DNA of 64,000 bases, taken from sequence record NC_055712.1; one strand, written 5' to 3'. Origin of the DNA: Escherichia phage phT4A. Positions 40,114 through 61,890 of this stretch are shown piece after piece. The first letter of the stretch is position 1. Every line of letters starts with the position of its first letter. The notes below the pieces were generated by a model. That model was not told the origin of the DNA. It searched no databases and saw only the letters and a list, made by a program, of their open reading frames with translations. Position numbers and translations under genes: made by a program.

Positions 40114-40166
40114 TCAACGTATGATCGAATTCGCAATAAAAATTCGATAGAAATTAAAAATATTGC

Positions 40167-40194: not shown

Positions 40195-40239
40195 TACCAC
40201 ATCGTAAATGACGATTAACTTTAATTGAGAGATAATATC

Positions 40240-41208: not shown

Positions 41209-41216
41209 ATTAAACT

Positions 41217-41239
41217 GGGTGCTCCGGCACCCTTTTTTA
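41217..41239 (+). terminator. rho-independent terminator (gggtgc-tccg-gcaccc + T6)
   Basis: Perfect GC stem and T tract after the stop. Confidence 0.65.
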
Positions 41240-41250
41240 TGAGGTGACAC

Positions 41251-41919: not shown

Positions 41920-42160
41920 ATGTTATGGTTGTATTGAAGCTCGGAAATTACTTGATGAGCATGGATTAGAATACGAATTTTATTCTGTTCTAAAGCCAGC
42001 AAATAACAGTGTGGGGTTTGATTACGATCGGCCCCGCATTGAAGAGTTAGCGAAACGTGTTCGTAGTCGAAGCATGGCATTTACTTACCCTCGGATCTTT
42101 GTAGATGGTAATTTTATTGGCGGTTATATGCAATTGAAAGAGTATTTGGGTGAAGCATGA
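41879..42160 (+). CDS. glutaredoxin-like protein (possible NrdH-type redoxin)
   Basis: 93 aa from the ATG at 41879; CYGC active site, TYPRIFVDGNFIGGY glutaredoxin signature. Confidence 0.7.
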   Translation: MKIEIYGIPESLHKCYGCIEARKLLDEHGLEYEFYSVLKPANNSVGFDYDRPRIEELAKRVRSRSMAFTYPRIFVDGNFIGGYMQLKEYLGEA

Positions 42161-42456
42161 ATAAAGAATACATTCGCAAAGTAGCAAACGCTATTCACGC
42201 AACAACGATTGATTTTCTGGAAGGGTTTGATCATATTATCCATCCCGAAACGTTGGATAGTTGGGAAGCCAAACTGTTTAAAAGTATCAATGAACAGTTT
42301 CCGGAAAAGGTTAAGCGCTGGTTTATCAGACAGGAAATCGTAGCAACGATCCTTAATGAACGTGGTGTTGAGGCGTTCGGTGTAACCCCTCTATATAAAC
42401 GAAACCAGATTACAGACGAAACAATCAAGAAATATAAAAAGATGGTTCGGAAGTAA
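42157..42456 (+). CDS. hypothetical protein
   Basis: 99 aa ORF, start overlaps the upstream stop. Confidence 0.5.
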   Translation: MNKEYIRKVANAIHATTIDFLEGFDHIIHPETLDSWEAKLFKSINEQFPEKVKRWFIRQEIVATILNERGVEAFGVTPLYKRNQITDETIKKYKKMVRK

Positions 42457-42472
42457 TAAATAATCAGTTAAA

Positions 42473-42492
42473 TGGCCTTCGGGCCATTTTTT
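42473..42492 (+). terminator. terminator hairpin (tggcc-ttcg-ggcca + T6)
   Basis: Stem-loop plus T tract before the gene 34 late promoter. Confidence 0.55.
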
Positions 42493-42495
42493 GTA

Positions 42496-42503
42496 TATAA
42501 ATA
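42496..42503 (+). promoter_or_regulatory. late promoter box TATAAATA upstream of gene 34
   Basis: Exact TATAAATA 33 nt upstream of the gp34 ATG. Confidence 0.6.
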
Positions 42504-42535
42504 TTGGTATTGAATACAATATAGGAAAAAAGATA

Positions 42536-45500: not shown

Positions 45501-46309
45501 ATACTCGCGGCGTTGTAGCTAACGTTAAATTTCAGGCTCCTGAAATTCAGGCAACTAGCAAAGTGTCTTTAGGTAGTGATAGCGTTATTTCTGCAAGCGG
45601 TTCTAACCTTTTACTGGGGGTGAACAGTAAGACAACGCAGATCAATACATCCGATGCAGGTAACATTGTAGCGGCTGAATCTGGGAACTCTTACAAAGTC
45701 TTTACTGAGAAGAACGCGCAAACCTTGCTGAATCCTACGTATGTACGTAAAGCAGGTGATACGATGTCTGGACGGTTGACAATCAACAACAGTTCTCTTA
45801 TCATCGCAGGTCAAGCGGCTTGGTCAACTCAGGATGCAGTAAACGAAGCATCACGGGGATACTGGACAGCAGAAATTACCTCTGCTGCACAATACAACTT
45901 GCTTCCTGGTTATGCGGTTCCGGTTCTCGAACCAGATCCGATTAACCCAGATATTATGATTGTAACCCGTTATACCTACGTTAAAGCACCTGGTACGTTA
46001 ACTCAGTTTGGTAACGGAACCGCATACACTTATCAGATTTGGGCACCTCGTCCGACCTCTGGTACTGGTGTTAACGCGTTGGCGCAATCCTTCTGGATCC
46101 GTCAAATGAATCCAATTACAGGTAAATTTGATGAATGGGGCCGCATGTATACGAGCAACAACCCGCCTACTGCTGGTGAAATTGGGGCAACGTCTGCTGT
46201 TGGTACTACGGTTAAAAACATGACTGTTACTGATTGGATCAAAGTTGGTAATGTTAAGATTTACCCAGATCCGGTTACTCAGACAGTTAAATTTGAGTGG
46301 GTGGCATAA
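42536..46309 (+). CDS. 34: long tail fibre proximal subunit gp34
   Basis: 1257 aa from the ATG at 42536; N-terminus GLDAAGEK(V/I)INV..ADRNT.SDGVNVD, QQYDPTRGY, TATETRRG(I/L)A repeats and C-terminal PDPVTQTVKFEWV match T4 gp34. Confidence 0.95.
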   Translation: MVAKSFRARSGLDAAGEKVINVGKADRNTLSDGVNVDFFNEFNGIQQYDPTRGYSQDMAIIYARRIWYAKQNIASPAGAFDESKWIATRNDPKWVYSNVTTPDGSIIDSGSYIMADGRFTELLYLLPDNPTEGDVITFKDCGGLVGVNSILVKSNTRQIRLRAVQSAQYRLTHPYMIATFIYNGNVWRVSEALDNRDSEIVNATGTGSFQLQSGMTVFRNSATGKITLQLPKYANDGDVITTYDADKMNSINVAVLQIYPGSGHTISDGASTGVTSVTSQKSGFGMFIFDAQNSQWKVYDADNRVRLRRIYSDLNAVPNDYVFVTANPSGAVPNVTVTLPTDVADGDRVYVSLYMMGKNQNCTIKVKDGTTDKIRTNKNMMQFPQRKDYPPDDWFSVTSLAFNAGSDYLPYIEFSYLKATKEWVVANYRPIVERVDATNRTRTGVIALAAQAEVNKNLEDNPNDETAITPMTLANKTATETRRGIARLATTAEVNKLSTDTYLDDVIVTPKKLNERTATETRRGLAEIATQAETNGSTDDITIVTPKKLHNRIASPTLTGILALVATGGTANTNTDRAQAGTGIYDHSDYQKAVTPKTLREYKATELQSGAVWLANLNEVINGTVASSNIPTVVTPEMLHKKTSTDARIGLIEIATQAETNAGTDYTRAVTPKTLNDRTATEGLTGIIAIATTAEVSAGTVTNKAIVPSKLKGYLDDTSHITVATADGLTQSGTIWTTVNIGIQSATETQRGTLRVATQSETNAGTLDTVFVTPKKLHAKKATESAEGIIQVATAAETTAGTVANKAVSPKNLKNTIQVDTSWQATDLVRGTVKLSKGAGTWSGNDVAGSTLPDDGYAAVGVAVSPYELNLTLKHYLPIGAKAVDADKLDNLDSSQFIRRDVAQTVNGALTLTQTTTVQANINSTADASFRVMNVNGDLNVGDGSSMGKLRLNGGSANDWSIQASAASGRIAMISTGNTSTVHLSVYNDTRGVVANVKFQAPEIQATSKVSLGSDSVISASGSNLLLGVNSKTTQINTSDAGNIVAAESGNSYKVFTEKNAQTLLNPTYVRKAGDTMSGRLTINNSSLIIAGQAAWSTQDAVNEASRGYWTAEITSAAQYNLLPGYAVPVLEPDPINPDIMIVTRYTYVKAPGTLTQFGNGTAYTYQIWAPRPTSGTGVNALAQSFWIRQMNPITGKFDEWGRMYTSNNPPTAGEIGATSAVGTTVKNMTVTDWIKVGNVKIYPDPVTQTVKFEWVA

Positions 46310-47245
46310 TGTCAAACTTAATGGCGGGGTTCGGCCCCGATTTTGTAGAAACGCAAATTCTATCGGAAACAAACAGCGTAACTTACAGAATAACCGCAAA
46401 GGCAACACATCCCAATGCGGTTCCTAATCAGTATGAGTTTACACTAAATCAAAAGGCGGTAGGGACACCGCCTAGTGTTGGGATCAACGTATGGAGAATT
46501 AACAATGCTGTAGTTGATCCAATTAAAACCTTCACATTATCGAATGATAATTCAGCAACTGCAAACAAAGCGTTTGTTGAATATATGGATGCTCAACCTT
46601 CTGGGCTGTATTTGATAATGACTAACGGTGAATACAAAACAAGCCAAATCGTTGATGATTGGTTTGCTAAAAACAGATCCGTTATGTGGCAAGGCGCTGA
46701 TTTCGCTCAGAGATTCCCAAATTCTGCATATGTTGCATTGTATGGGGCTTCAAAATCTCGTATACTGATTGAATCGTTTTACGCGAACGATGGAGTTTTA
46801 AAAGAAGATTCACGCGCATCAATCGATCTTGTCTATGATAACGTTGGTGATGTTGGGCGAACTGGTGTACCTTTCCGATCTGTTGAAGATACGGAAGAAT
46901 ACAATTCAACCAATGGATCTGAATATAAAGTATATCCTGTTGCAAACCCAGTGATCTCTAAACTGGCTGATTATGGTATGGCTCCTGGATTAGCTATGAT
47001 GATTGCTGGTGATTTTTACGCCAGCAAAGCATTATTGGATGCTGGATCAACAACAAGGGTTACTGTTCGATGGTTTACGGGTACTGCTCAAACTTCATCA
47101 TCGGTGATTGAAGTTCCTGCAAATAAACCTGATGAGTGGTTACGATTTGAACAGTTCTATACGATCCCTAGTGGTTGTGATGGATTTAACGTTGCTGTAT
47201 CTCGTTATCCTAAACCCGCTACGGATAGTTTATCTGCGTATCCGT
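46309..47245 (+). CDS. 35: long tail fibre hinge protein gp35 (3' end lost in scaffold gap), assigned by position
   Basis: ATG overlaps the gp34 stop; 312 codons before the gap (T4 gp35 is 372 aa); the track's 1640-aa ORF is an artefact of reading through N. Confidence 0.55.
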
Positions 47246-47345
47246 NNNNNNNNNNNNNNNNNNNNNNNNNNNNNNNNNNNNNNNNNNNNNNNNNNNNNNN
47301 NNNNNNNNNNNNNNNNNNNNNNNNNNNNNNNNNNNNNNNNNNNNN
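47246..47345. other. scaffold gap (100 N)
   Basis: Exactly 100 N; probably hides the gp35 3' end, possibly gp36, and the first codons of the distal fibre gene. Confidence 0.99.
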
Positions 47346-50300
47346 TTTAGCAAAAATTCAATTCCTACGTAGCACAGTTGCGGGGAAAACACCTACTACA
47401 AGTCAGCTTGCAGATGGTGAACTGGCGATCAACATGGCTGATTATGCCATTTACACGAAAAATGGTTCTTCGATCGTTCAGTTAGCGGGTAAAGGTATCC
47501 CAGAAACAAATACCAAAAAATTAACAGTAAATGGGCCTAGTGCTCTTAATGATACCGTTACCGTAGCGGAAGGTAAAACTATTACTTTCACCAACGCGGA
47601 TTTGAGCGGGGGTATGGTTCGTCATATCACTGGTAAAAACGCGCTTAATGATGGTTGGTACATCGGTTCTGGTGGTGAGAGCAATAAAGGGTTTTTAGAA
47701 ATCGGTACAATTGATGACGGTGATGAAGAGATCCGTTTCGTTTCCCGTGGTTCTGGTGATACTGTTCGTCGTACTCTGAAACTTATTGATTCCGGTGGTA
47801 ACACTCGCGTACCAGGTAACATCTATATTGATGAAGCTATGGGCGGTGGTGGTTCTGCTTTTATTTCAAAAAACAAAGCATATTTCGGTGCTGGCGGTGC
47901 TGATATCTATATGCGTAACACTGCTGGCGGTGCGACAAATCAGTTAACGATCACTGATGGCGGTGAATTGCTGTTTCAAGCAAAACCTGTATACTGGGAC
48001 GGTCGTAAACCGACTTTAACCGAATTGGGGATCGGGCGGGTTGAAAACGCGCGTCAAATGCAGCAAGACAATTGGCCTATAACTACAGGTAATGAAACCC
48101 GATGGGTTAAAGTTGCTCTTTTAAAAGATCCTGGCTCAGGTCATAGTCGCTTGCAACTGATGGTGACTAACGGCGGTAACTATGGTTCTACACGCGGATC
48201 GTTCGATTTTATCGATTGTTCTGCTCGTAGTATGCCTTCAACATTAACGGCTGCAAATATTCGTTCTTATCTGCAAATTCGTCGATTGGGCGATCCGGCA
48301 ATGGATGACACTAACCAGATGCGTTATAGTTTGGTTCGCACATCCGAAGGTTTGGAATTGTGGTTTACTCAAAGATCGTTCATCGGTAGTACAAAAATTG
48401 CTCTGTTATCTACGGCTGGCGTGACTGAATATTATATTCCTAGTGGATATACATCACAAACAACCGCTCCGGATGGTTTGATCGAGAGTAAGCCTATTCG
48501 TATCTATGACGAAATGAACAAACCTAGCCTTGACGATGGTACTGATGGTATTCTGTCTGTTGCTAAAGGTGGTACAGGCGCAAGTACAGCGGCTGCTGCT
48601 CGCACAAACTTAGGTTTGGGTACTGCTGCAACCCGTGATGTTGGTACAGGTTCCGGACAAGTAATGCTTGTTGGTGCTTACGGTTTAGGCGGTAAGGGTA
48701 CATCATATAGCATCGCAAATGCTCGCGACTTCCTGAAACAACTGCGTACTGATGGTTCTCAGTTCATGCGAAATACGCTTGGTACTGACATTAACTATGG
48801 TATGGGCGCAAGTTTTTATAGTTCCGTATCAGATGTTCATGCAGTGATCTCGGTTGATTGGAATACTGGTCGCGTTAAAGTTGGTGCAACTAATGATACT
48901 AACCTTAACTCAGATACAGGAAGAATCAACTTCCAGGAACTGTACGGTACTGCATTTAAACCGACTCCGGATGACGTAGGGGCTGTTGCACGTGCTGGTG
49001 ATACGATGTCTGGTGATCTGACGATCTCTAAAGTGTCGCCTGGTTTCCATTTGAATGCTGAGAGCGGAAACTCCGTAATTTGGTTTAAGTATAAAGGGGT
49101 TGAAAGTGGTGCTGTGTGGGCGTTGCCTAATACTGCCTCTTCTGGTGAAGTTCGCATTCGTGCCAGAACGTCGGGCGGAACGACTGGGGGCGAATTCTCA
49201 TTTAAATCAGACGGTACATTTACATCACCTGGTAATATCAATATTACTAGCGGCGCTTTCAACGGTAAAAGTGTCAATACTCAGTATGCGAACTTTAATA
49301 ACACAAGTTCAACAACAACCGAACAAACCGTTTCTATTAGTGGTTCGCAGCACACTCCTCTGTTACTGAATAGACCGACTAACTCGAACTTGTCTATCGG
49401 GTTTAAACTTTCCGGAATGAACATGAAACGTTTGGGTATCGATGTAAACGGTGATATTCGTTACGGTGAAGCCGAAAACCAGACACAAAACGCATGGCTG
49501 TTGACTTCGGATACCATAAACAGATGGAGTGTTAACTTCGGGCGTGATATTAACGTTGCAGGTGTAGTTAATTCAACTGGTGGATTTACTGGCCCTGTTA
49601 CTGCATATGATTTGACCGGGGTAACTCAGGATCTTGATGCTTTAACATTGAACAATGCCGAACCAGGACATATTAAAGTTTATTCGTGCCGTAGTATGGG
49701 TGGCGGTGATAACATCACCAATAAACCTTCCGGCGTAGGTGGTAACTTTATTGTTATCGTTGAATGTCTCCGTAAAGTCGGCGATACTGATTACACTAAC
49801 CGTCAAGTATTACGCGCATCGGACAATAAACGCAGTTGGGAACGTTGGTTTACTGTTAGCGGTACTGCTAAAGCCTGGACACCGTGGAGAATGAACGTTG
49901 TTAGCGGAAACGATGACGATGTATCATTTAAATCTGTTACCACAACTACAGGAAACCTGAACAGTGGAAACGATCTGATTGTTGCGAACAACGCTCGCGT
50001 AGGTGGCAACTTAGGGTTAGGTGGTGCTTCTTCCACGACATACACTGATAAAGGTGTTGTGATTGGTAACGGTAGTGCGCTGTTAGAATCCACTGATGGT
50101 CGCATGATTATTGGTAGTTCTGGTGCTGGTCGTGCTGTTGAATTGCGTCCTGGTGGCCCAACTCAAACCAACAACGGGATCAAAGTGACTGCTACCTCTG
50201 GAAGTGGTGGTGATACTGCGATCGAGTATGCGCAAGGGGTGAAAATCCGGGCAAATAACGGTGGTGCGTTGATTATTTCTGCTAAAGCTGGACAAACGAT

Positions 50301-51219
50301 TTATCTACGTCCTCAAGGAGATACATCCAGCACAAACGAAACAAGGATTGATTCTAGTGGTAACATGATAGTTAATGGTAATATCAGTGCAAACGGAAAT
50401 ATGTCTGCTACTGGTACGTTAACTGTTTCTGGTGCTACTACATTAAACAACACATTAACGGTTAATAATGTAGGGCCAATCGAGAAACGGGGGATCAGGA
50501 CGTATACAGAAGGTTCTGTTACTGTCAACGAAACCGACGGCATTACGATGTTTGGTAATGGCACAATTCATGGCACAATGCGATTAGTTGAGAGAGTGAA
50601 TAATACTACTTTCATCGGTCTGCAAACTTCCATTAATGACACTACAAACGGTTGGTTTGAATTCCACCACACAGGAAAATTCAAATCAAACAATATCGAA
50701 GCCTCTGGTAATATTGTTAGTTTGACTGGTTCCATTGGTGCTGTTGGTGCATTGACTGTAACGGCTCCTTCTTCTGATAACGGTACTGACCATATTTGGT
50801 TCCGTAACTCTGATGGATCTGAACGTGGTGTTATCTATATGCCAGGCAATGCTAATATTGGCGGTTTCCGCGTTCGTGGTGTGGAATGGCAATTTGATGG
50901 CGGTGCTAGTCAGTTTATCGGCCCTGGTGCTCGTTGGCGTATTCACCCTGATGGTAATATTCAGGCTGATGTTTTTAGCGGTTATCTGAATAACTACATC
51001 AATGATCGGTTTAACGCGTGTGCTCAGTGGGTTCGTACTGGTGCTCAACAGGACTTTGGTCAGATCGGTCGTCCTGCTCCTGGTTTAACAGTTCCTGCTG
51101 GTTGGGTTTTAGTTGGTCTTAACGCCAACGGTAACGAAGCTAACCAGAACATGCAGTTAATCGGTGGTCGTTTGCAGGTATGGAAGAATAACGTTCAATG
51201 GGTTGATTCTGCAACTTGA
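47346..51219 (+). CDS. 37: long tail fibre distal subunit, gp37-type (fibre A; 5' end in gap)
   Basis: Begins (truncated) LAKIQFLRSTVAGKTPT.SQLADGELAINM, matching the T4 gp37 N-terminus MATLKQIQFKRS..AGTRP...LAEGELAINL; about 1290 aa; no C-terminal chaperone domain; followed by a gp38-like chaperone. Confidence 0.8.
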
Positions 51220-51226
51220 TAAAATA

Positions 51227-51240
51227 GGGGCTTCGGCCCC
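51227..51240 (+). terminator. GC hairpin (ggggc-ttcg-gcccc) after fibre A, weak T tract
   Basis: Same hairpin type as other terminators in the window but followed by ttcattc. Confidence 0.35.
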
Positions 51241-51261
51241 TTCATTCTTAAAGGTAAAATA

Positions 51262-51663
51262 ATGATTGTTAAACAAATGAAAGGTATTCGCTGGCATCAT
51301 AATTTTGAAGGTGGTGCTTACTATCGTGATTGTAATGACAAGTGCTGGTATGAATTTCGTAATTCTTTGGATAAAAATTCCCATATCATTATAGTTGATG
51401 CTAAAACCAATAAAATCATTAACTATTATAACGGTGATGATCCTACGATGATTGGATTGTTTGCTGATAAAGAAATGATTCTTAATGTGTATCAGCTATC
51501 AGAATTTCCTGTTAATGACTGGGGAGAATTCTCTAAGCGAGAATTTAAGTTCGAAGATGATAAGGTAGTCATGACGAAAGATGTTGAACTTCCGAAATCT
51601 CGAACAAAAGAAGATATCATGGCAGATTTGATAAAACTTCAAAAAGAGCTAGAGGTAATGTAA
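51262..51663 (+). CDS. 38: tail fibre assembly chaperone, gp38-like
   Basis: 133 aa directly after fibre A; pattern similarity to the T4 gp38 chaperone (..IIIVDAKTNKIINYY.. vs ..YAVVFDERTQDWIY..; ..FPVNDWGEF.. vs ..FDEPGEFDIW..). Confidence 0.5.
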   Translation: MIVKQMKGIRWHHNFEGGAYYRDCNDKCWYEFRNSLDKNSHIIIVDAKTNKIINYYNGDDPTMIGLFADKEMILNVYQLSEFPVNDWGEFSKREFKFEDDKVVMTKDVELPKSRTKEDIMADLIKLQKELEVM

Positions 51664-51669
51664 TTTCTA

Positions 51670-51747
51670 AGGCTACCTATATGGTAGCCTTTTTGTTGTA
51701 TGCTAAATATACCTATAGCAACCTAAGAAGAGTCTTATAAAATGGCT
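51670..51747 (+). repeat. intergenic element copy 1: terminator hairpin (aggctacc...ggtagcct + T5) + AT box + ATGGCT start
   Basis: About 90% identical to 56445-56513. Confidence 0.8.
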
Positions 51748-51847
51748 NNNNNNNNNNNNNNNNNNNNNNNNNNNNNNNNNNNNNNNNNNNNNNNNNNNNN
51801 NNNNNNNNNNNNNNNNNNNNNNNNNNNNNNNNNNNNNNNNNNNNNNN
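51748..51847. other. scaffold gap (100 N)
   Basis: Exactly 100 N; flanks share ggct, compatible with a direct join giving ATG GCT GAT TTA (MADL...). Confidence 0.99.
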
Positions 51848-54800
51848 GGCTGATTTAGCAAAAATTCAATTCCTACGTAGCACAGTTACGGGGAAAACAC
51901 CTACTACAAGTCAGCTTGCAGATGGTGAACTGGCGATCAACATGGCTGATTATGCCATTTACACGAAAAATGGTTCTTCGATCGTTCAGTTAGCGGGTAA
52001 AGGTATCCCAGAAACAAATACCAAAAAATTAACAGTTGATGGGCCTAGTGCTCTTAATGATACCGTTACCGTAGCGGAAGGTAAAACTATTACTTTCACC
52101 AACGAGGATTTAAGTGGTGGAATAACTCGTCATATCGTTGGCAAATGCGCCACTAATGATGGTTGGTACATCGGTTCCGGTGGTACAAGCAACAATGGTA
52201 TTCTTGAAATCGGTACTATTGATGACGGCGTTGAAACCATCCAGATCGTACAGCGCGGCGCAGGCAACGTTGAAGCCAGAAAGTTAGTCTTGCTTGATGG
52301 TTCGGGTAATACGAATCTTCCTGGTGATTTAAGATTAACCACCAATAAAGCTGTTAAAATTTCGAATGGAAGCACTCTTACACTAGAAATGGGCGTAGGT
52401 GCTAACGATGTATACATTAAAAACCTGAAAGGCTCTGGCGTTCTTCAATTAACCAATGATAGTAATCTGTCGTTCAGAAATTACCAGGTTTATTATGCCA
52501 TGAGTGGAAAAGGCCCTGGTAAAGATGGTACTCTTCTGACTAATGTAGAAAACGAGCGCCAACTTAAACAGGATAATTTCCCTATAACTACAGGCAACGA
52601 AGCTCGGTGGACTAAAGTTGCTCTTTTAGTAGACCCCGGCTCAGGGCCGAGTCGCTTGCAACTGATGGTGACGAACGGCGGTAACTTTGGTTCTACGCGT
52701 GGCTCTATCGACTTTATCGATTGTAGCGCTAGAAACTTTCCCGCAACATTAACAAGCAGTAACATTCGTTCTTATCTGCAAATTCGTCGAATCGGCGATC
52801 CTGGACTTGATGGCACAAACCAATTACGTTATAGTCTAGTTCGTACCTCTGAGGGTTTAGAACTGTGGTTTACACAACGCGCGTTTATTAGTGGTGTTAA
52901 AGTTGCTCTGCTGTCTATTGATGGTAATACTAAATATTATCTGCCTACTGGTTACACGACTACTTCAACTGCTCCAGAAGGTTTAGTTGAGAGTACGGCT
53001 ATTCGTATCTATGATGAGGTAAACAAGCCTAATCTCGACGATGGTACTGATGGTATTCTGTCTATTGCTAAAGGTGGTACAGGTGCAAGTACAGTAGATG
53101 CCGCTCGCACAAACTTAGGTTTGGGTACGGCTGCAACCCGTGATGTTGGTACAGGTTCCGGACAAGTAATGCTTGTTGGTGCTTACGGTTTAGGCGGTAA
53201 GGGTAAATCCTATAGTAGTTCAACCTCTCGCGATTACCTGAAACAACTGCGTGCTGATGGTTCTCAGTTCATGCGAAATACGCTTGGTACTGAAATTAAC
53301 TATGGTATGGGCGCAAGTTTTTATAGTTCCGTATCAGATGTTCATGCGGTGATCTCGGTCGATTGGAATACTGGACGCGTTAAAGTTGGTGCGACTAATG
53401 ATGCTAACTTGAACTCAGATACCGGAAAAATCAGCTCTCAGGAACTGTACGGTACTGCATTTAAACCAACTCCGGATGACGTAGGGGCTGTTGCTCGTAC
53501 TGGTGATACAATGTCTGGTGATTTGCTTATCAGTAAAGAGTCACCTGGGTTATTTTTGAATGCCACTAATGATACCGGAAACTCTGTAATTTGGTTTAGA
53601 AACAAAGGAGTTGAGACAGGTGCTGTATGGGCAATACCTAACACCGAGTCTTCGGGTGAGGTTCGAATTCGTGCTAGAACGACTGCTGGGGTCACAGGCG
53701 GCGAGTTCAAATTTAAATCTGACGGTACATTTACATCACCTGGTGATGTAAATATCACCAGCGGTGCTTTCAACGGTAAAAGTATCAACACTCAGTATGC
53801 GAACTTTAATAACACAAGTTCAACCACAACCGAACAAACCGTTACTATTAGTGGTTCACAGCACACTCCGCTGTTACTGGATAGACCGACTAACGCGAAC
53901 TTGTCTATCGGGTTTAAACTTTCCGGAATGAACATGAAACGTTTGGGTATTGATGTAAACGGTGATATTCATTACGGTGAAGCAGAAAACCAGACAAACA
54001 ACGCATGGCTGTTGACTTCGGATACAGTAAACAGATGGGTTGTTAACTTTGGTCGTGATATTAACGTTGCTGGTGTGGTTAATTCGACTGGTGGATTTGC
54101 TGGCCCTGTCGCAGCGTATGATTTGGCTGATGTTAAACTAGATCTTAATGATTTAACGCTAACTGGCGCTACCCCAGGCCATGTTAAAGTTTATTCATGC
54201 CCTAGTATGGGTGGCGGTAATAACATCACCAATAAACCTTCTGGCGTCGGTGGTAACTTTATTGTTATTGTTGAATGTCTCCGTAAAATAAACGATACCG
54301 ATTACACTAACCGTCAAGTATTACGCACATCTGATAGTAAACGCAGTTGGGAACGTTGGTTAACTGTTAGCGGTACTTCTAAAATCTGGACACCGTGGCG
54401 TGTTAATATTGTTAATGGGAATGATGACGATGTATCATTTAAATCCGTTACCACGACTACAGGAAACCTGAACAGCGGAAATGATTTGATTGTTGCTAAC
54501 AACGCTCGCGTAGGTGGTAACTTAGGGTTAGGTGGTGCTTCTTCAACGAAATACGCTGATAAAGGTGTTGTGATTGGCAAAGGTAGTGCTCTGTTAGAAA
54601 CTACTGATGGTCGTGTGATTATTGGTAGTTCTGGTGGTGGTAATGCTGTTGAATTGCGTCCCGGTGGCCCAACTCAAACCAACAACAGGATCAAAGTAAC
54701 TGCTACCTCTGGAAGTGGTGGTGATACTGCGATCGAGTATGAACAAGGCGCTAAAATTCGTGCTAATAATGGTGGTGATTTGATTGTTTCTGCTAAAGCA

Positions 54801-55823
54801 GGTCAAGCAATTTATCTGCGACCGCAAGGTGATGCATCCAGCACAAACGAAACCCGTATTGATGCAAACGGTAGTATCACGATTAACGGCAATATTAACG
54901 CCAACGGTACATTAACTTGTACTGGTGGTGCTGTTAACGGAGACTTGACTGTATCAGGAAAAGTAGATATCACTGGAAACCAGTTAAAAACTACATCGCT
55001 CTGGGTTACTGGAGATGCTGCTGTTAACGGTGTTTTAACTGTTGATGGAAGGGCTAGGTTTAATCAAGAGTTCATTGTATCAACTTCGGTTAACGTCCAG
55101 AACACTGGTAACAGTCATTTGGTCTTCCGTAAAGCTGATGGTACAGAAAAAGGACTTATTTGGGCTGATGAGCCTGGTAGCGTTAGTATAAGAGCAGGTG
55201 GTGTCTCTGGGCCAACGTGGAATTTCTGGAACAGTGGTTCTTGCCAATTCCCAGGTGCTATTAGTAACTTTAATGGTGTTAATAGTACTACTAATTACCC
55301 TGGCGGCGGAAGTGGCGCGTATTTAAATACCGCTGGCTTAACAAGTAGATTTAGTAATGGTGCTTATGTTTCCTTATACTTCCAAGAATATGTAGGAAAT
55401 TATCACCAGGCTATTCTTAATGTTAACGGCTATGGTCGAGATGACAATTTCTATTTCAGGGCCGGCGGTGACTTCTTCTGTACTCGTAACGGTTCTTTTG
55501 ATAACGTTGAGATTCGTTCTGACCGTAGAGCCAAATCGGATATCAAAGTTATTGAAAATGCTTTAGAAAAGGTTGAAACATTATCTGGTAATACTTATGA
55601 ACTTCATAACACTTCTGGCGGTACTACTCGTTCTGCTGGGTTGATTGCTCAGGAAGTTCAAGAAATCTTACCGGAAGCAGTTACTCAAGATAATGAAGAA
55701 GATGGCGGTATGCTTCGTCTGAATTATAACTCAGTAATTGCACTTCTTGTTGAATCTGTTAAAGAGCTTTCTGCCGAAGTTAAAAATCTTAAAGCAGAAA
55801 TTGAAGAACTTAAATCTAAATAA
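51848..55823 (+). CDS. second gp37-type distal tail fibre (fibre B) with C-terminal S74-type intramolecular chaperone domain
   Basis: Reads (M)ADLAKIQFLRSTVTGKTPT... from the gap edge; co-linear with fibre A at 70-95% aa identity over about 1100 aa, then a different tip. Confidence 0.8.
55518..55823 (+). other. C-terminal intramolecular chaperone (peptidase S74-like) domain of fibre B
   Basis: SDRRAKSDIK.IENALEKVETLSG.TYEL......RSAGLIAQEVQEILPEAV...........LNYNSVIALLVESVKEL matches the T5 pb1 / endosialidase CIMCD consensus. Confidence 0.8.
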
Positions 55824-55826
55824 TGC

Positions 55827-55850
55827 ATGGGGCTTCGGCCCCATCTTTTA
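55827..55850 (+). terminator. hairpin (atggggc-ttcg-gccccat) after fibre B
   Basis: 7-bp stem, ttcg loop, then ctttt. Confidence 0.5.
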
Positions 55851-55862
55851 GGAGAAATAACT

Positions 55863-56390
55863 ATGGCAGTAACAGGGCCGTGGGTCGGAAGTTCAGCAAA
55901 GGCTGAAACTGGTGAGTCGTGGATGGCTCAAGCTGGGGCCAAATTAAGAATAGGGACACCGTTTTGGATGTCTAATATGATTGGACAAAGCGTATTCCAT
56001 TTAATTTTCAGAATTAACTATGCACAGGGTTCTTCTGGTGATCCATCTAGATATAGAGGATTCTTTAAAAGAGGGTTAGCAGTAAGTGTAGGAGATTCTG
56101 CTAACCAACCGACGCTGAATGCGTTCCCTGGCGGAGATGTGGGTTCACTAGTAGCTATTACAAATATCAAAGGCGACCCTTATTGCCTTTCTATTTGGAA
56201 TGGTCAAGATAGGCGAGTTAAAGTTTCTATTTTTAGAAGCGATGGAGCCGAACAATACGATGTTTATTTTAGCGGAACTACTATGGCTGACGGGTGGAGA
56301 AGGTATAAATGCGAAGATGCTGGAGGTCTCAATGGGTATTTTGAGGCTAGAATGGATAACCAGTTTGGTGCTTTATTAGAATATGTTTGA
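55863..56390 (+). CDS. hypothetical protein in the gp38 position downstream of fibre B (possible fibre accessory/adhesin)
   Basis: 175 aa from the ATG at 55863 with AGGAG RBS; Gly/Ser/Trp-rich; no family recognised. Confidence 0.5.
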   Translation: MAVTGPWVGSSAKAETGESWMAQAGAKLRIGTPFWMSNMIGQSVFHLIFRINYAQGSSGDPSRYRGFFKRGLAVSVGDSANQPTLNAFPGGDVGSLVAITNIKGDPYCLSIWNGQDRRVKVSIFRSDGAEQYDVYFSGTTMADGWRRYKCEDAGGLNGYFEARMDNQFGALLEYV

Positions 56391-56444
56391 TAGGTAAACC
56401 AACAAATTCACCTCATAATATTAAATAGATTAAAAGGCTACCAT

Positions 56445-56513
56445 ACAGGTAGCCTTTTTGTTGTATCCTAAATATACGTATAGTAACCTAAGAAGAGTCT
56501 TATAAAAATGGCT
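56445..56513 (+). repeat. intergenic element copy 2 (terminator hairpin + AT box + ATGGCT holin start)
   Basis: About 90% identical to 51670-51747. Confidence 0.8.
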
Positions 56514-56742
56514 GAGAGAAATCCCGTAGATAAACTAGCCTTATTTGATCGGGTAATCTCGTTTGTGATGGGTGTGAAAACATGGAAACAATTGCTGATA
56601 AAAATAATTCTAATAATGGTTATGTTTCTTATGGTAGTAACTTGGTACAAATGGACTGATATATTCCCGATGATAAAAGGTGCCCTTGTAGTCGATACAA
56701 GGGCTATCGAAATGGAAAGAACTGAAAAGTTTAATCAATCCG
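56508..56742 (+). other. t: 5' portion of holin gene t, duplicated on the left side of a scaffold gap (probable unmerged contig overlap)
   Basis: 56506-56742 is identical base-for-base to 56843-57079. Confidence 0.85.
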
Positions 56743-56842
56743 NNNNNNNNNNNNNNNNNNNNNNNNNNNNNNNNNNNNNNNNNNNNNNNNNNNNNNNNNN
56801 NNNNNNNNNNNNNNNNNNNNNNNNNNNNNNNNNNNNNNNNNN
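56743..56842. other. scaffold gap (100 N), probably spurious
   Basis: Flanked by a 237-bp exact overlap. Confidence 0.95.
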
Positions 56843-56845
56843 AAA

Positions 56846-57493
56846 ATGGCTGAGAGAAATCCCGTAGATAAACTAGCCTTATTTGATCGGGTAATCTCGT
56901 TTGTGATGGGTGTGAAAACATGGAAACAATTGCTGATAAAAATAATTCTAATAATGGTTATGTTTCTTATGGTAGTAACTTGGTACAAATGGACTGATAT
57001 ATTCCCGATGATAAAAGGTGCCCTTGTAGTCGATACAAGGGCTATCGAAATGGAAAGAACTGAAAAGTTTAATCAATCCGCGTTGGAACAGTTGAGCATA
57101 GTTCATCTTACTTCCAACGCGGATTTTTCAGCGGTATTGGCATTCAGACCAAAGAATATAAACTATTTTGTTGACATTGTAGAATATCAGGGAAAACTAC
57201 CATCCCAGATCGATCCTAAAAACCTCGGCGGTTATCCGATCGATAAAACATCCGAAGAATACACGAATCATATAAATGGCTTGTATTATTCATCCACTAA
57301 AGCAAGTTCCTACCTACCGACACGTGGTTTTGTGCCAGTAGCTTATACTTTTAGTTGCCCTTATTTTAATCTTGATAACTACTATTCTGGATCGGTTTTG
57401 ATGGAATGGTACGCAAAGCGGCCTAATATACCAGATATGAAGCTAAACATCATATGTGGACAGGCCGCGCGTATTTTAGGTCGAGTGAGGTGA
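56846..57493 (+). CDS. t: holin T (lysis/lysis-inhibition)
   Basis: 215 aa; N-terminal TM segment, ALEQL.IVH..S.ADFSAV..FRPKN.NYFVDI..Y.GKLPS, LGGYP.DKT, SCPYFNLDN.Y.G, ICxQAARILGR match the T4 gpt holin. Confidence 0.93.
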   Translation: MAERNPVDKLALFDRVISFVMGVKTWKQLLIKIILIMVMFLMVVTWYKWTDIFPMIKGALVVDTRAIEMERTEKFNQSALEQLSIVHLTSNADFSAVLAFRPKNINYFVDIVEYQGKLPSQIDPKNLGGYPIDKTSEEYTNHINGLYYSSTKASSYLPTRGFVPVAYTFSCPYFNLDNYYSGSVLMEWYAKRPNIPDMKLNIICGQAARILGRVR

Positions 57494-57763
57494 TTAACGT
57501 AATGCTGGTGTTAAATTGTGTGTTCTTCCAATAGCCCGTTTGATTGCTTTAAAGAAGTTCATCACCGGGCTATTTTTCTCGTAAATATCCCAAACTTTCA
57601 ATTTGTCCCACGGATCCGGAACATAATCTTCATTCCTTGCCGAAAACCCCAACGTAACCCGCCTGTATCCAGCGCTGTCGTGATAATACACGAAGAATGG
57701 CCTACCTATTGGCGCAACTTTACAACCTCTCTTAGCGGCTCTCATAGCCTCATCGAACGTCAT
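57494..57763 (-). CDS. small hypothetical protein, possibly DUF2829-like
   Basis: 89 aa from internal ATG; FDEAMRAAKRGCKVA...PWDKLKVWDIYE loosely follows the DUF2829 pattern; low confidence. Confidence 0.4.
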   Translation of the reverse strand: MTFDEAMRAAKRGCKVAPIGRPFFVYYHDSAGYRRVTLGFSARNEDYVPDPWDKLKVWDIYEKNSPVMNFFKAIKRAIGRTHNLTPALR

Positions 57764-58050
57764 TGATACCCCCAAAAATTTCTATGCATGAATGGTCGAA
57801 TTCCGATAGTTTCACTCAAAATGAATATCGGATGATCTAGCTCATCGTGGTTTTCTTCGTCAATGACGATATCCCAATCAGTAGCCTTTTGTTCTTCTAC
57901 CGTGGCAATGAATACCTGGTTTACTTCACACTTGCGGTGTGTACGTCTGATGATTGTATCCCCTTCACGAAACACAATCATATCAGGGTTGGTAGTGCGG
58001 TACGCGGTTTTACCCGCGCACACTTCATTAAGCATATCTTCGTATGTCAT
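57760..58050 (-). CDS. hypothetical protein
   Basis: 96 aa ORF, translationally coupled. Confidence 0.5.
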   Translation of the reverse strand: MTYEDMLNEVCAGKTAYRTTNPDMIVFREGDTIIRRTHRKCEVNQVFIATVEEQKATDWDIVIDEENHDELDHPIFILSETIGIRPFMHRNFWGYQ

Positions 58051-58847
58051 TATAAAACCTTTACACGTTGAACGATGGTTTGTTTAACGTCTTTGTATTC
58101 TCCGTGCTCTTTAACGGTTGCTTTGAAAGTGATTTCATCACCTTCGTTTGCAATGTTATTACCGAAGTAAACAACAACATTACCATCAACATTAATTTTG
58201 GTCATGAATCTTTCTACAGAAGTGTAGTAAGAAACTTGAGTATATCCCAGTGAAATCACTTTCTCAACGGTTCCGGTCATTTCCAGACGCTGTTTGATTT
58301 CACCGATGTGGTTAGCTTTAGAAATGCGTTCCTGACGCTCTTGTTCCCACTGTTCGCGGATTTCTTCGCGTTTGGCGATATAATCCTTCTCCAGTGCAAC
58401 ACCCATGCAGTAAGCACACACGGCGTCAAATACAGGGCTGTTTTTGTTGTCTTCTTTAGACTGGTCAGCCCACCAAAGAACAGTAAACATTGGCATTTCT
58501 GCAATTACTTCGCCTTTACGCTTGCCAATCGGCATGATCCCTTTTTCCAGCAGTTCCAGTTTTTCAGTATCGAACACTGACAGTTTACCGCGACGTTCGA
58601 ACAGATCGAAATCTGCAAAGCCCTGGAATACCATTTTGAAAGTATCAGTTTCAGTTAAACGGGCTGAAACACGGTCGAAATACTCACGCGCTTTCGCTTC
58701 CGCTTTCTCCGGATCGGTAGATAAGTTGCAGATATAGTTATCAGAAGTATAACCGCCACCTCTACGCTCAACACGCAAGGTGTACATTGCATTTTTACGA
58801 CCAGAAGAAATGAAGTAAGTGGTAGTAACTACGGTTGCGTTAGTCAT
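58050..58847 (-). CDS. hypothetical protein
   Basis: 265 aa from the ATG at 58845-58847 with AAGGAG RBS 8 nt upstream; no family recognised. Confidence 0.55.
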   Translation of the reverse strand: MTNATVVTTTYFISSGRKNAMYTLRVERRGGGYTSDNYICNLSTDPEKAEAKAREYFDRVSARLTETDTFKMVFQGFADFDLFERRGKLSVFDTEKLELLEKGIMPIGKRKGEVIAEMPMFTVLWWADQSKEDNKNSPVFDAVCAYCMGVALEKDYIAKREEIREQWEQERQERISKANHIGEIKQRLEMTGTVEKVISLGYTQVSYYTSVERFMTKINVDGNVVVYFGNNIANEGDEITFKATVKEHGEYKDVKQTIVQRVKVL

Positions 58848-58897
58848 GGTATTTCTCCTTAAAGGGTATCTCGTTTCGATATGGCTAATATAGCAAA

Positions 58898-58925
58898 AGC
58901 CCCTGACCGAAGTCAAGGGCTTTTT
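58898..58925. terminator. bidirectional terminator hairpin (gcccctgac...gtcaagggc) flanked by A and T tracts
   Basis: Imperfect 9-bp inverted repeat with flanking A4/T5. Confidence 0.5.
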
Positions 58926-58927
58926 CA

Positions 58928-59155
58928 TCATTCATTCGAATCTTTCATTGTTTTATGAAGATGAATATCAAAAATTTTCCAGTACGCCTTTCCGCGAGGA
59001 TAAATTTTTGCTTTGTCAATATCGTTGTTGCTTCCCCATGTGTTGTTTGGGCCACGACATCGATTTTTTATATAATCTGTATGCCAGAATAAGCGCTGAA
59101 CCGATGATTCCGTACCTAATGGATCTTCTTTACTGAACAGAATTTGTATACTCAT
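58928..59155 (-). CDS. small hypothetical protein
   Basis: 75 aa ORF between the terminator and the upstream gene. Confidence 0.4.
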   Translation of the reverse strand: MSIQILFSKEDPLGTESSVQRLFWHTDYIKNRCRGPNNTWGSNNDIDKAKIYPRGKAYWKIFDIHLHKTMKDSNE

Positions 59156-59571
59156 AAGAAGAACCCTGTTCTAACTACTAAATCGATCTGTTTTTCCGGT
59201 ATCAGTGGCACATCTGCATCAACGTTGCACTGATAATACATCCCGACATACTCATGAGGAATGTTGGATTCACTCGCCCATGCCAGGTTGTCGTCTGTAC
59301 GCGGCCCTAACATGAGGTTAACGATATCGACAGCGCGATCCTGTTCTGGGGTGTTGTTGCATCCGTTCACATAATGCCCGTGAGCGGTTTTGAGGATTTC
59401 AATGATATCTTCGTCGGCTTCAACGAGATACAGCCCCGTGTTTTCTGGGATTTCCTCAAGAATAATCAAAGCGGTTTTCATCACACTTACCTTTATGTTT
59501 CTGCTTACGTTTTGCTTCTTTAAGTGCTCGCTTGCGATCGCGGTGAGTAGAAGCGCGGTTAATCCATGCAT
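59152..59571 (-). CDS. hypothetical protein (start uncertain; alternative ATG at 59481)
   Basis: 139 aa ORF; acidic. Confidence 0.45.
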   Translation of the reverse strand: MHGLTALLLTAIASEHLKKQNVSRNIKVSVMKTALIILEEIPENTGLYLVEADEDIIEILKTAHGHYVNGCNNTPEQDRAVDIVNLMLGPRTDDNLAWASESNIPHEYVGMYYQCNVDADVPLIPEKQIDLVVRTGFFL

Positions 59572-59589
59572 GTTTCGCTACCAGATTGT

Positions 59590-59820
59590 TCATCGAGGAT
59601 ATAATGGCACATGATGTTGAATACTGACTTCACCATACATTTTTACGATAGTTAAGCTATCAGATCCTTTAACAATTCTGTATTTTTCTGGAACAACGCG
59701 GTCGATTTCTTTTTTGACGAAGTTAAGCAATCCGAAGTCATCTATATCTTTTGGTGCTTTGGAAATAGAAGACAGTGATACTCGTTGACGCGAATCATAG
59801 TACGAAGAAATTACAAACAT
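59590..59820 (-). CDS. small hypothetical protein
   Basis: 76 aa ORF. Confidence 0.4.
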   Translation of the reverse strand: MFVISSYYDSRQRVSLSSISKAPKDIDDFGLLNFVKKEIDRVVPEKYRIVKGSDSLTIVKMYGEVSIQHHVPLYPR

Positions 59821-59864
59821 ATATTATTTTCCTTATTGGGGCTTTTCAGCCCCATTTTAGAGAA

Positions 59865-60113
59865 TTAATCCAGCAATTTGCGGATCTTGTCTGCGATACG
59901 TCCGGCACGGGTTGCGCTTTCGGTATGATTGCTTTCTTTGGTAGCCAGTTCAGCCAGCTTACGCTGATGTTCTTCTTCTGCTGCTTGGCGATCTGCTGCA
60001 ACCTGTGCAACCTGCTCATTATCGTGAGCAATACGCGCTTCCAGTTCAGACAGGGTTTTGTCGAAAGTTGCTACGATTTCATCTACAGAACGAATTTTAT
60101 TAAACAGTTTCAT
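59865..60113 (-). CDS. small coiled-coil protein
   Basis: 82 aa, Ala/Glu/Arg-rich heptad-like sequence. Confidence 0.45.
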   Translation of the reverse strand: MKLFNKIRSVDEIVATFDKTLSELEARIAHDNEQVAQVAADRQAAEEEHQRKLAELATKESNHTESATRAGRIADKIRKLLD

Positions 60114-60149
60114 AATTTATCTCAATTGGTTAGTTTTAATCAGTATACA

Positions 60150-60587
60150 TCAATACGGCTGGAATTCAAAATCATAAATGTCATTCAGTGCGCGGTTCCA
60201 CTCGGTGTAGTTTTCACCAGCACCATAACGCATTTGAATAGCACTTTCGAACGTTGATCCGTTGAGGTTCGGGAAACCGAACAGGTTTTTGATTTTGTCA
60301 TGTGCTACATAGTACAAAGAAGCACTTTCCAGCATCGCAACCATCGCAGACGGTTCGTGTTCGCGGCGCTTGATACGTAACAGAGTACGACTAGCACCAG
60401 TTTTACGGCGTTGATTTGGTGCTACGTAGAAACGGAATACTACGCGCCCTGTTTTATCATCAACTACCAGGTAAAACCCGTTTTCTTTCAGATCCACGCC
60501 TTCGAATTTCTTGAAGGTTCCGCGTTTCATGTCACCAATTTTAATTGCATATTTGTGAATGTCAAGTCTTGTCAGAATTCTTTTCAT
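60150..60587 (-). CDS. ndd: nucleoid disruption protein Ndd-like
   Basis: 145 aa; FYLVVDDKTGR..FRFYVAPNQRRKTG and C-terminal YTEWNRALNDIYDFEFQPY resemble T4 Ndd (FYFLVSKLDGR..ARFYVGNQRSKQG; ..FKFVLQAY). Confidence 0.6.
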   Translation of the reverse strand: MKRILTRLDIHKYAIKIGDMKRGTFKKFEGVDLKENGFYLVVDDKTGRVVFRFYVAPNQRRKTGASRTLLRIKRREHEPSAMVAMLESASLYYVAHDKIKNLFGFPNLNGSTFESAIQMRYGAGENYTEWNRALNDIYDFEFQPY

Positions 60588-60936
60588 ATTTTTTAGATAC
60601 CAGTTTGCCTAATTTTGTAATTTCGCCTGTTTTTACGTTAACAAACAAGGCGATGCTCAGAAATGGGATGCTAATCACTACGCTGATCAATGTAAACAGA
60701 AAACGTATCACAAAAAGAACAGCACGTTCAAGATATCGTTGCATCCACGCGATTCCTAAACAACTATACCCTACTATAAAGGTGGTTGCAACATAAAATG
60801 CACCAAATCCTTTACGAAATACGTAACCTTTCCCGGATTCTATCCGGTCGTCGGCCCACATTTCACGGGCAGTTTTCAGAATAGATTCACCACTAGCGCG
60901 AGTTTCGTTAGCCGAAGGCATGTTTTTAAATTTCAT
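60562..60936 (-). CDS. hypothetical membrane protein
   Basis: 124 aa with two hydrophobic segments. Confidence 0.5.
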   Translation of the reverse strand: MKFKNMPSANETRASGESILKTAREMWADDRIESGKGYVFRKGFGAFYVATTFIVGYSCLGIAWMQRYLERAVLFVIRFLFTLISVVISIPFLSIALFVNVKTGEITKLGKLVSKKYEKNSDKT

Positions 60937-60981
60937 GATAGTCTCCTATGCGCCCAGAACTCTCCAGGCGCGGTTGTTTAG

Positions 60982-61890
60982 TTAGTAATGGCTAAAACCA
61001 TATGTAACATCAATCATGACTTTATAACGGCATACACGCATTTTTGCGTTATTGTAATCCACTGGGATCGCTACCACGTCAGCAGGATCCACCTTTACCT
61101 GAATGACTCTACCAACACCGCCCCCGTAGTGTGGAAGGTATGATTTAGCCGCAACGTGTAGGCCAGTAGAACAGGTGCGCGTTTTATCTTCGTCTACCAT
61201 GTTTCGAGGCATGGAGACAGTCACACCAGGACTATTATCAAATTTGCCAGTAGCGAGATCTTTATAGTTATCGCGTACACGTTTCCAGGCAAGAAAACAA
61301 CCATCATCGGTCAGTTCAATGTCATTATGTACAAGGAACCCATAAAGCTGGTATACAGCATCGCGTGAAGGGTTTCGCATCAACCGTTCAAAGAAGTTCA
61401 CCAGATGTTCATACGGACGATCGTTATACATTTCGCGAATGATTCGTTGAGTGATATCAGAATCAAACACTACATCTTTATATAGAAGCTGATGACCAAT
61501 GATTTTAATGTTGCCTTTGCTATAGGTTCGGATCGCTTCTTGAGTATCCAAACAAGTTACAGCACCTTTGACATCACCAGCTTTCAGCATTTCATGCGCT
61601 TTCTTAAAGTTCGGATGTGTTTCACCCGCCATGAAAACGCGCCCTTCGTATACAACCGTAATGAACGATTCAGATCCGATCATACGCGGTACAGTGTCTG
61701 ATACTTTAGGCTTTTGTTTTACATCCCTTTTCTTAGGGAATTCCGCTAACTTGCGGTTGATAACGCGCCCAATGGTTCGGGCGCTTACGTTGAACTGTTG
61801 GGCCAGTGCTGTTTTACTTGCCCCCGTCAACCATCCATTATAGATAGCTTTCTGTTGTACTTCGTCAAGAATTTTGACCATTATTTCCAC
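60982..61890 (-). CDS. rIIB: rIIB protein
   Basis: 302 aa; N-terminal HTH-like, F.FLV.NDIE(L/I)T(D/E)DG.F.AWK.VR.NY, DNSPG, TCS(T/R)GLHV, SYL/IPH(Y/F)G, VKV.P.DVV.IP.DYN.AKMR.C.Y.V match T4 rIIB. Confidence 0.93.
   Translation of the reverse strand: MEIMVKILDEVQQKAIYNGWLTGASKTALAQQFNVSARTIGRVINRKLAEFPKKRDVKQKPKVSDTVPRMIGSESFITVVYEGRVFMAGETHPNFKKAHEMLKAGDVKGAVTCLDTQEAIRTYSKGNIKIIGHQLLYKDVVFDSDITQRIIREMYNDRPYEHLVNFFERLMRNPSRDAVYQLYGFLVHNDIELTDDGCFLAWKRVRDNYKDLATGKFDNSPGVTVSMPRNMVDEDKTRTCSTGLHVAAKSYLPHYGGGVGRVIQVKVDPADVVAIPVDYNNAKMRVCRYKVMIDVTYGFSHY

Follow-up and report, generated by a model that had tools for sequence, protein, structure and literature searches.

The 64,000-nt stretch of Escherichia phage phT4A that we analyzed (NC_055712.1; hereafter, the window) contains two copies of an ~80-nt intergenic element, which lie on either side of a second module for the long-tail-fiber tip. 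We consider it likely that this duplication is really two alleles from a mixed phage population that scaffolding placed in series. The element itself is an ordinary intergenic region upstream of the holin gene t, already annotated as such, and its duplication is most probably an artefact of serializing two alleles in a gapped scaffold.

By megablast, the region belongs to the genus Slopekvirus (KP15-like Klebsiella phages, Straboviridae), with many finished genomes at 85-100% identity. The window contains four runs of exactly 100 N (39866-39965, 47246-47345, 51748-51847, and 56743-56842), which divide it into five contigs: c0 (1-39865), c1 (39966-47245), c2 (47346-51747), c3 (51848-56742), and c4 (56843-64000). 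The copies of the element and the gaps are as follows, with the strand given for the copies.

51669-51747, + strand: copy 1, the tfa-t spacer; hairpin at 51669-51691 followed by a T-run, box CTAAATAT at 51703-51710, ribosome-binding site (RBS) AAGAAGAG at 51725-51732, ATGGCT at 51742-51747
56432-56513, + strand: copy 2, the 38-t spacer; hairpin at 56432-56458, box CTAAATAT at 56468-56475, RBS at 56490-56497, ATGGCT at 56508-56513
39866-39965: gap 1, 100 N; the flanking contig ends are ~4.9 kb apart in phage KLB23
47246-47345: gap 2, a 100-N placeholder between c1 and c2 (from mapping on KLB23 and the related contig L007)
51748-51847: gap 3, a 100-N placeholder between c2 and c3, whose flanking ends share only 4 nt (GGCT)
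56743-56842: gap 4, a 100-N placeholder between c3 and c4

The window is thus a Slopekvirus draft scaffold, made by putting five contigs in order with 100-N placeholders between them. What was sequenced most likely contained a pair of variants with different distal long-tail-fiber modules. Variant A, represented by c2, would carry gp37 with a Tfa-type chaperone, and variant B, represented by c3, would carry a gp37 that ends in Peptidase_S74 together with a gp38-type adhesin; both modules would belong in one slot, between gp36 and holin t. The assembler would have failed to merge the variants and would have broken the contigs at points of identity, and the scaffolder would have placed both alleles end to end. 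The "duplicated element" would then be two orthologous copies of one ordinary 38/tfa-t spacer.

Two copies of a spacer on two homologous contigs

The repeat is real. In an ungapped repeat search, 51669-51742 matches 56434-56507 (74 nt, 89% identity), and self-BLAST, with one gap, aligns 51669-51747 to 56434-56513 (81 columns, 91.4% identity, E = 1.9e-22). An earlier reading of this DNA from the letters alone (the sequence-only reading) had reported ~90% identity and a shared ATGGCT at the end of both copies, which agrees with our results; these six nucleotides are the first two codons of t. It had placed the beginning of copy 2 at 56445, which is ~11 nt too late: copy 2 starts at 56434, or at 56432 if the stem is extended by an A/T pair. 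The copies differ mostly in the 5-nt loop of the hairpin (TATAT versus ATACA), which accounts for 5 of the 8 mismatches. The remaining sequence has 3 mismatches in 69 positions, plus a one-nucleotide difference in the length of the A-run that precedes the ATG.

Copy 2 lies between the stop codon of gp38 (56390) and the ATG of t (56508) and is followed by ATGGCTGAGAGAAAT, with which holin t begins. Copy 1 has the stop codon of tfa (51663) on its left and, on its right, an ATGGCT that matches the start of t in orthologues with 100% identity. The sequence-only reading was correct that copy 1 ends at the gap before the second fiber gene (fiber B) and that copy 2 precedes holin t (Phage_holin_T). 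It also suggested that copy 1 could equally join the start of the holin, and in relatives with an identical spacer, the holin is indeed what follows. Specifically, the last 91 nt ending copy 1 are 100% identical to the spacer of L001, L005, L007, and L010-L012, where GAGAGAAAT (holin) comes next. Copy 2, in turn, has exactly the spacer sequence seen in nine independent contigs (L002, L014, L015, L020, L024-L026, L029, and L030).

More broadly, we found 31 instances of the spacer in finished genomes and public contigs. These represent 13 variants, and the spacer occurs once per locus and is always followed by ATGGCTGAGAGAAAT. The variant in copy 1 was found in 6 independent loci and the variant in copy 2 in 9. 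GenBank records of Slopekvirus relatives annotate a terminator and a ribosome-binding site in this 38/tfa-t region. All of the relatives have one copy and the scaffold has two; we attribute the discrepancy to scaffolding.

The similarity extends far beyond the spacers: c2 and c3 are homologous and collinear over their full lengths. In a self-BLAST of the 64 kb, the matching blocks are 47346-47727 with 51854-52235 (91.6% identity), 48040-50396 with 52545-54907 (84.8%), and the spacers themselves. The only other self-matches are a 238-nt overlap between c3 and c4 and a weak match within gp34 (137 nt, 72% identity, 44057-44192 versus 44435-44570). The genes on c2 and c3, and the holin on c4, are as follows.

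47346-51219, + strand: gp37-type distal long-tail-fiber gene, version A (PHROG phrog_10316, tail fiber protein, E = 0)
51226-51241, + strand: GGGGCTTCGGCCCC hairpin in the 37-38 spacer, just 3' of the stop codon of gp37 A (terminator-like scan, repeat family, and fold)
51262-51663, + strand: Tfa-like tail-fiber assembly chaperone, 133 amino acids, partner of fiber A (phrog_136, tail fiber assembly protein, E = 5.8e-13)
51848-55823, + strand: gp37-type distal fiber gene, version B, 1325 amino acids with the Met (C-terminal Peptidase_S74, Pfam PF13884, E = 4.4e-15)
55863-56390, + strand: gp38-type adhesin, 175 amino acids, partner of fiber B (Pfam Gp38_N, E = 5.6e-23; phrog_1121, tail fiber adhesin)
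56505-56742, + strand: the end of c3, with the first 235 nt of holin t; an exact copy of 56843-57080
56846-57493, + strand: holin gene t on c4, 215 amino acids (Pfam Phage_holin_T, E = 3e-52)

Both versions of the fiber module map to the same slot in finished genomes. c2 maps to positions 14387-18788 of the KLB23 locus (99.4% identity) and the start of c4 maps to position 18780, so c2 abuts c4. In LR881140.1 (L028), c3 and c4 are contiguous (98.5% and 99.4% identity), with gp36 directly upstream of c3. Version A of gp37 is 99.4-99.6% identical to the gp37 of phage KLB23 and of contig L007, and gp36 precedes it in both; version B is collinear with LR881140.1 at 98.5% identity, again with gp36 upstream.

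The sequence-only reading proposed comparing related T4-like genomes at this locus. We found a single module, with either Tfa or gp38, between gp36 and t in every finished or long relative that we examined. The order gp34-gp35-gp36-gp37-(Tfa or gp38)-t, with one module, is found in Lemur_ER36, KLB27, R2_1, and KLB23. The exact 133-amino-acid Tfa allele is present on 23 contigs that we read, and the holin is directly next in all 8 of those whose neighborhood is shown. Similarly, the exact 175-amino-acid gp38 allele is on 10 contigs, and all 6 of those shown that reach upstream have the order gp36-gp37-gp38-holin. Both types of module have been described in Slopekvirus as alternatives at one locus (bioRxiv 10.64898/2026.05.12.724579, Fig. 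S25).

We considered several records as natural tandems and rejected them. CPRSA and CPRSB, which are annotated with "L-shaped tail fiber protein" 6-7 times and "assembly catalyst" twice, contain single modules that are fragmented by frameshifts. In Raoultella phage M26a, the two "Tail fiber adhesin" entries are one split gp38. R2_1 is larger than usual (178.9 kb), with a single module.

Contig ends and the tandem alternative

The ends of the contigs are where the two versions converge. The first position at which c2 and c3 differ from each other (47380 G versus 51888 A) is 34 nt from the start of c2 and 40 nt from the start of c3, and the first base of c4 is the base right after their last difference (51738 T versus 56504 A). 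Both contigs overlap into c4 at 100% identity, c2 by 9 nt and c3 by 238 nt. The shorter overlap had been noticed in the sequence-only reading: the last 9 nt of copy 1 (AAAATGGCT, 51739-51747) are identical to 56505-56513 and to the first 9 nt after gap 4 (56843-56851). The longer one had not: 56505-56742, the last 238 nt of c3, is 100% identical to 56843-57080, the first 238 nt of c4. Because c3 and c4 overlap, gap 4 hides no sequence.

The alternative is a true tandem, with one genome that contains gp36, gp37A, tfa, the spacer, gp37B, gp38, the spacer again, and t. We think this is unlikely. Such a tandem could result if two Slopekviruses in the same infected cell crossed over unequally at ATGGCTGA, an 8-nt microhomology that gp37 and t share at their starts. 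Fiber B would then be driven by copy 1, from the promoter and RBS of t, and the direct repeats (the spacer and the 5' end of gp37) would permit the loss of either module. In this scenario, gap 3 would conceal no sequence. Its two flanks, …AAAATGGCT where c2 ends and GGCTGATTTAGC where c3 starts, share GGCT, and an in-frame join would give MADLAK. It would make phT4A a T4-like phage with two alternative long-tail-fiber tips, the second expressed from a captured holin promoter and RBS, and with direct repeats that would turn the locus into a reversible host-range switch; that the scaffold order is real in this sense seems improbable to us.

A clonal tandem would have had no reason to break at c2|c3 or at c3|c4, where its only repeats would have lengths of 42 nt (34 nt in addition to ATGGCTGA) and 11 nt, respectively. 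Exact repeats of 148, 76, 66, 55, and 53 nt that are shared by c2 and c3 lie inside unbroken contigs. Since repeats of 76-148 nt were resolved, a true tandem would not have been interrupted by repeats of 42 nt or 11 nt. If the reads came from a mixture, the flanks in common would be far longer than any read, and the breaks are expected to fall where we see them. Also, a tandem does not account for c4 beginning at the exact base where c2 and c3 converge, or for c3 duplicating 238 nt of c4. T4-type phages package DNA by the headful, and ~4.8 kb of extra DNA would consume most of the terminal redundancy, which is another argument against a tandem.

Where a tandem would have a sequenced junction between the first and second units, the scaffold has 100 N. 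We searched for this junction (the spacer, ATGGCT, and then GATTTAGC, which is the sequence of fiber B from 51852 onward), allowing either length of the A-run, and found 0 matches in collections of viral, metagenome, and genome contigs. We also compared synthetic 300-nt junctions, in both orders, to a phage collection and asked for one place that covers at least 80% of the query. None of 112 Slopekvirus records spanned a junction, and the two halves always mapped apart. The exact alleles of Tfa or gp38, where the contig reaches the relevant neighbor, were always in single-module contigs among those examined.

Several observations weigh against two alleles in series. The positive controls for the contig collections return only 2-5 Slopekvirus contigs, so the absence of the junction from those collections is weak evidence, and it is the 112 phage records that carry weight. 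The lineage switches exactly at the c2/c3 junction. c1 and c2 share a lineage with Logan contig L007 (c1 matches it at 99.97%, with 0 mismatches over its last 3.1 kb, and c2 at 99.6%), and c3 and c4 belong to another (98.5-99.4% identity to LR881140.1 and KLB27). c1 is ~93% identical to the second lineage and the first 2.7 kb of c4 is ~95% identical to the first. Self-BLAST gave no alternative to c1 or c4 elsewhere in the window. This pattern, with lineage A on the left and lineage B on the right, is exactly what a single unequal crossover at the shared ATGGCTGA would leave; a mixture requires either two phages whose flanks are nearly the same or de-replication that discarded redundant flanking contigs ahead of scaffolding. 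The overhangs at the contig ends (9, 34, 40, and 238 nt) match no single k-mer size. Finally, a bubble of c2 and c3 alone does not explain why c1 ends 923 nt before gp37 or why gp36 is missing.

Two other contig ends are a hint that the reads contain more than one lineage. At 47245, c1 ends 6 nt before a single-nucleotide polymorphism (SNP) that distinguishes lineages A and B, and it closes a SNP-free stretch of 217 nt. Similarly, c3 ends 6 nt past a lineage SNP in t. These are not significant alone: with ~1 SNP per 45-50 nt, each coincidence has a ~12% chance, so we do not rely on them.

A different possibility is that either c2 or c3 does not belong to the sample and entered by carry-over from another sample or as a patch from a reference, instead of being a coexisting variant. 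The scaffold is clearly stitched, and c2 is 99.4-99.6% identical to several public genomes or contigs, including KLB23 and L007. However, the neighbor of c2, c1, shares its lineage (0 mismatches to L007 over 3.1 kb), so lineage A extends beyond c2. We regard a foreign contig as very unlikely.

Overall, two alleles in series remains our preferred explanation. The sequence-only reading had listed an assembly-graph bubble among its possibilities, and this fits best: the contigs end at convergence, c3 and c4 overlap by 238 nt, each finished relative has one module, and the junction is absent from public data. The copies do bracket the fiber B module in the scaffold, as had been stated, and probably do not in the phage.

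Anatomy of the spacer and the recombination-site alternative

The hairpin of copy 1 has 9 pairs (5 of them G-C) and a loop of 5 nt, and it is followed by TTTGTTGT; the hairpin of copy 2 has 11 pairs. Scans of the two spacers gave 3 and 5 terminator-like sites, versus 0.3 and 0.6 in shuffled sequences, and the hairpin is kept in the centroid folds. The stem is constant over the 13 variants of the spacer except for one A-to-G change, which gives a G-U pair. We predict that the hairpin and T-run are an intrinsic (Rho-independent) terminator. This GC-rich hairpin may terminate or attenuate the g37-g38 late transcript.

The loops among the relatives form reverse-complement pairs (TATAT/ATATA and ATACA/TGTAT) on a constant stem (L002, L003, L004, L016, L023, L027, and L028). 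It looks as if the loop (51678-51682 and 56443-56447) might have been inverted repeatedly, perhaps by template switching within the palindrome.

Downstream of the hairpin, the box CTAAATAT(AC) lies 32 nt before the ATG. Within it, gCTAAATAt matches the T4-type late box TATAAATA at 6 of 8 positions. AAGAAGAG is 9 nt before the ATG and is the putative ribosome-binding site of t, with ATGGCT encoding the first two residues of the predicted holin. The same layout of hairpin, TATAAATA, RBS, and ATG is also found upstream of gp34 (42496) and of several other late genes in the window, so the element appears to be the usual intergenic unit of T4-type late genes, with a late box that matches at 6 of 8 positions.

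The box may serve t as a late-promoter-like element. The only phage for which CTAAATA is a reported late motif is Aeh1 (PMC1524935). An assignment of the motif to the late promoter of RB49 was not borne out, as that paper names Aeh1. The motif is not enriched in the window, with 10 occurrences versus 11.4 expected. Because it is reported only for Aeh1 and is not enriched, we only infer that it acts as a promoter. A scan for sigma-70 promoters in both spacers found none above the expectation from shuffling.

Could the element instead be a dedicated recombination site, or the boundary of a mobile cassette that moves the fiber B and gp38 module in and out, as with the G segment of Mu or the C segment of P1? 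Tail-fiber switching systems with repeat-flanked segments are known, and in the scaffold, two ~80-nt copies do flank a fiber and adhesin module. However, the copies are direct repeats instead of inverted ones, and the only inverted signal is each copy's own hairpin. There is no recombinase among the genes from 47346 to 57493 (gp37, tfa, gp37, gp38, and t), although the small open reading frames (ORFs) downstream of t were not scanned. In every Slopekvirus that we examined, the element occurs once, in the same place, whatever the module, and its terminator, promoter box, and RBS are the generic late layout. Also, the left end of the "cassette" lies in the coding sequence of gp37 and not in a copy of the element. 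We therefore consider a switching cassette extremely unlikely, and the suggestion in the sequence-only reading that this is a recombination site does not hold.

Its other suggestion, a cassette boundary, stands only in an evolutionary sense. The spacer is the conserved right flank of a module that Slopekvirus genomes exchange through ordinary homologous recombination, as opposed to a dedicated recombination site. The spacer and t are conserved and the upstream module is not, which suggests that the spacer acts as the right-hand homology arm for the swap. Recombinational shuffling in conserved flanks has been described for the adhesin loci of the T4 superfamily (PMC3157838).

Gaps, neighboring genes, and known systems

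The other gaps show that the assembly is fragmentary. Among 172 related records, none has the contig ends that flank gap 1 next to each other. nrdD and neighboring genes are missing from the scaffold, and c0 ends 15 nt into the coding sequence of nrdD. At gap 2, the scaffold lacks ~923 nt that the relatives have, which comprise the final 190 nt of gp35, the whole of gp36, and the initial 9 nt of gp37. Since gaps 1 and 2 conceal ~4.9 kb and ~0.9 kb relative to the relatives, the N runs are placeholders. A generally troubled assembly is what we would expect from a mixture of strains. The gp36 that falls in gap 2 is an essential fiber hinge protein.

Five of the eight internal contig ends (39865, 47346, 51747, 51848, and 56843) are within 15 nt of a start codon: nrdD +15, gp37 +9 and +2, and t +6 and -3. 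This fits with co-assembled variants whose similarity switches at gene boundaries.

c1 encodes gp34 and most of gp35. A mechanical ORF (46297-51219) runs through the Ns of gap 2, and given the ~923 missing nucleotides, this ORF is an artificial fusion of gp35 and gp37. Version A of gp37 lacks its first 9 nt because c2 starts at nucleotide 10 of the coding sequence. Version B lacks its first 2 nt: c3 resumes at GGCTGATTTAGC, which is nucleotide 3 of the gene, and encodes (M)ADLAKIQ. The Peptidase_S74 of version B is an intramolecular chaperone domain.

The GGGGCTTCGGCCCC hairpin, which has a UUCG loop, is found 3' of both gp37 stop codons; the counterpart in c3 is at 55827-55844. A mechanical ORF of 187 amino acids begins at an ATG inside this hairpin at 55827, and we place the start of gp38 at 55863, which gives 175 amino acids, as annotated in KLB27. 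An exact 43-mer taken from gp38 had no match in the genome and viral contig collections.

c4 starts at 56843 (AAAATGGCT...), 3 nt before the ATG of t, and its first 651 nt are identical to L002, L014, and L015. Within the coding sequence of the holin is a perfect 9-bp hairpin, GCCCTTGTA-GTCGA-TACAAGGGC, at 56682-56704 and again at 57020-57042; the KLB27 record lists it as an intragenic terminator.

Further downstream, the minus-strand ORF at 58050-58931 encodes 293 amino acids here and in three short Logan contigs (L015, L031, and L032), and 265 amino acids in most relatives. These three contigs, which have the exact 293-amino-acid allele, are 99.4-99.8% identical to c4, not 100%. L031 and L032 terminate within the 38-t spacer or shortly after it, so breaks at this place occur in other assemblies too. 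Another difference is at 59594-59864 (positions 2752-3021 of c4), where ~270 nt are present in genomes like KLB27 and do not align to genomes like L007 and KLB23. This is an insertion/deletion or a replacement among the small hypothetical genes downstream of t.

A practical caution is that annotating the scaffold as it stands would yield a Klebsiella phage with two long-tail-fiber tips and a duplicated holin start, and conclusions about host range or engineering might follow. It was already known that Slopekviruses swap the gp37 tip and its matching partner (Tfa or gp38) as one unit, with the conserved gp36 and 5' end of gp37 on one side and the 38-t spacer and holin on the other as the homology arms. 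Our results suggest that the sequenced material held at least two fiber variants; the presence of two or more variants in a phage preparation is relevant to therapy or host-range work.

The closest known counterpart of the element is the 38/tfa-t intergenic region of the Slopekviruses (KP15, KP27, KLB23, KLB27, Lemur_ER36, and others). It has the same position, hairpin, CTAAATATAC box, RBS, and holin start; the difference is that each relative has one copy per genome, whereas the scaffold has two, with a second fiber module and N gaps between them. The scaffold also resembles a false duplication of haplotigs, known from samples that are heterozygous or mixed, in which the two sides of a bubble are placed in series: the divergent segments are collinear, their flanks are identical, the ends are at convergence, the overlaps are redundant, and the gaps are placeholders. 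It differs in that the lengths of the overhangs fit no single k.

Module A, which pairs a gp37 tip with a Tfa chaperone, resembles the fibers of the T4 type, and module B, with its C-terminal Peptidase_S74 and its Gp38_N adhesin, resembles those of the T2/S16 type, in which gp37 has an intramolecular chaperone domain and gp38 is the adhesin. These types are alternatives between genomes, but here both are within one scaffold. As in the invertible segments of Mu (G) and P1 (C), two alternative sets of fiber tip and chaperone are found at one repeat-bounded locus. However, those segments have inverted repeats, a dedicated serine recombinase, and genes in opposite orientations, while the modules here lie in the same orientation, with direct repeats and no recombinase.

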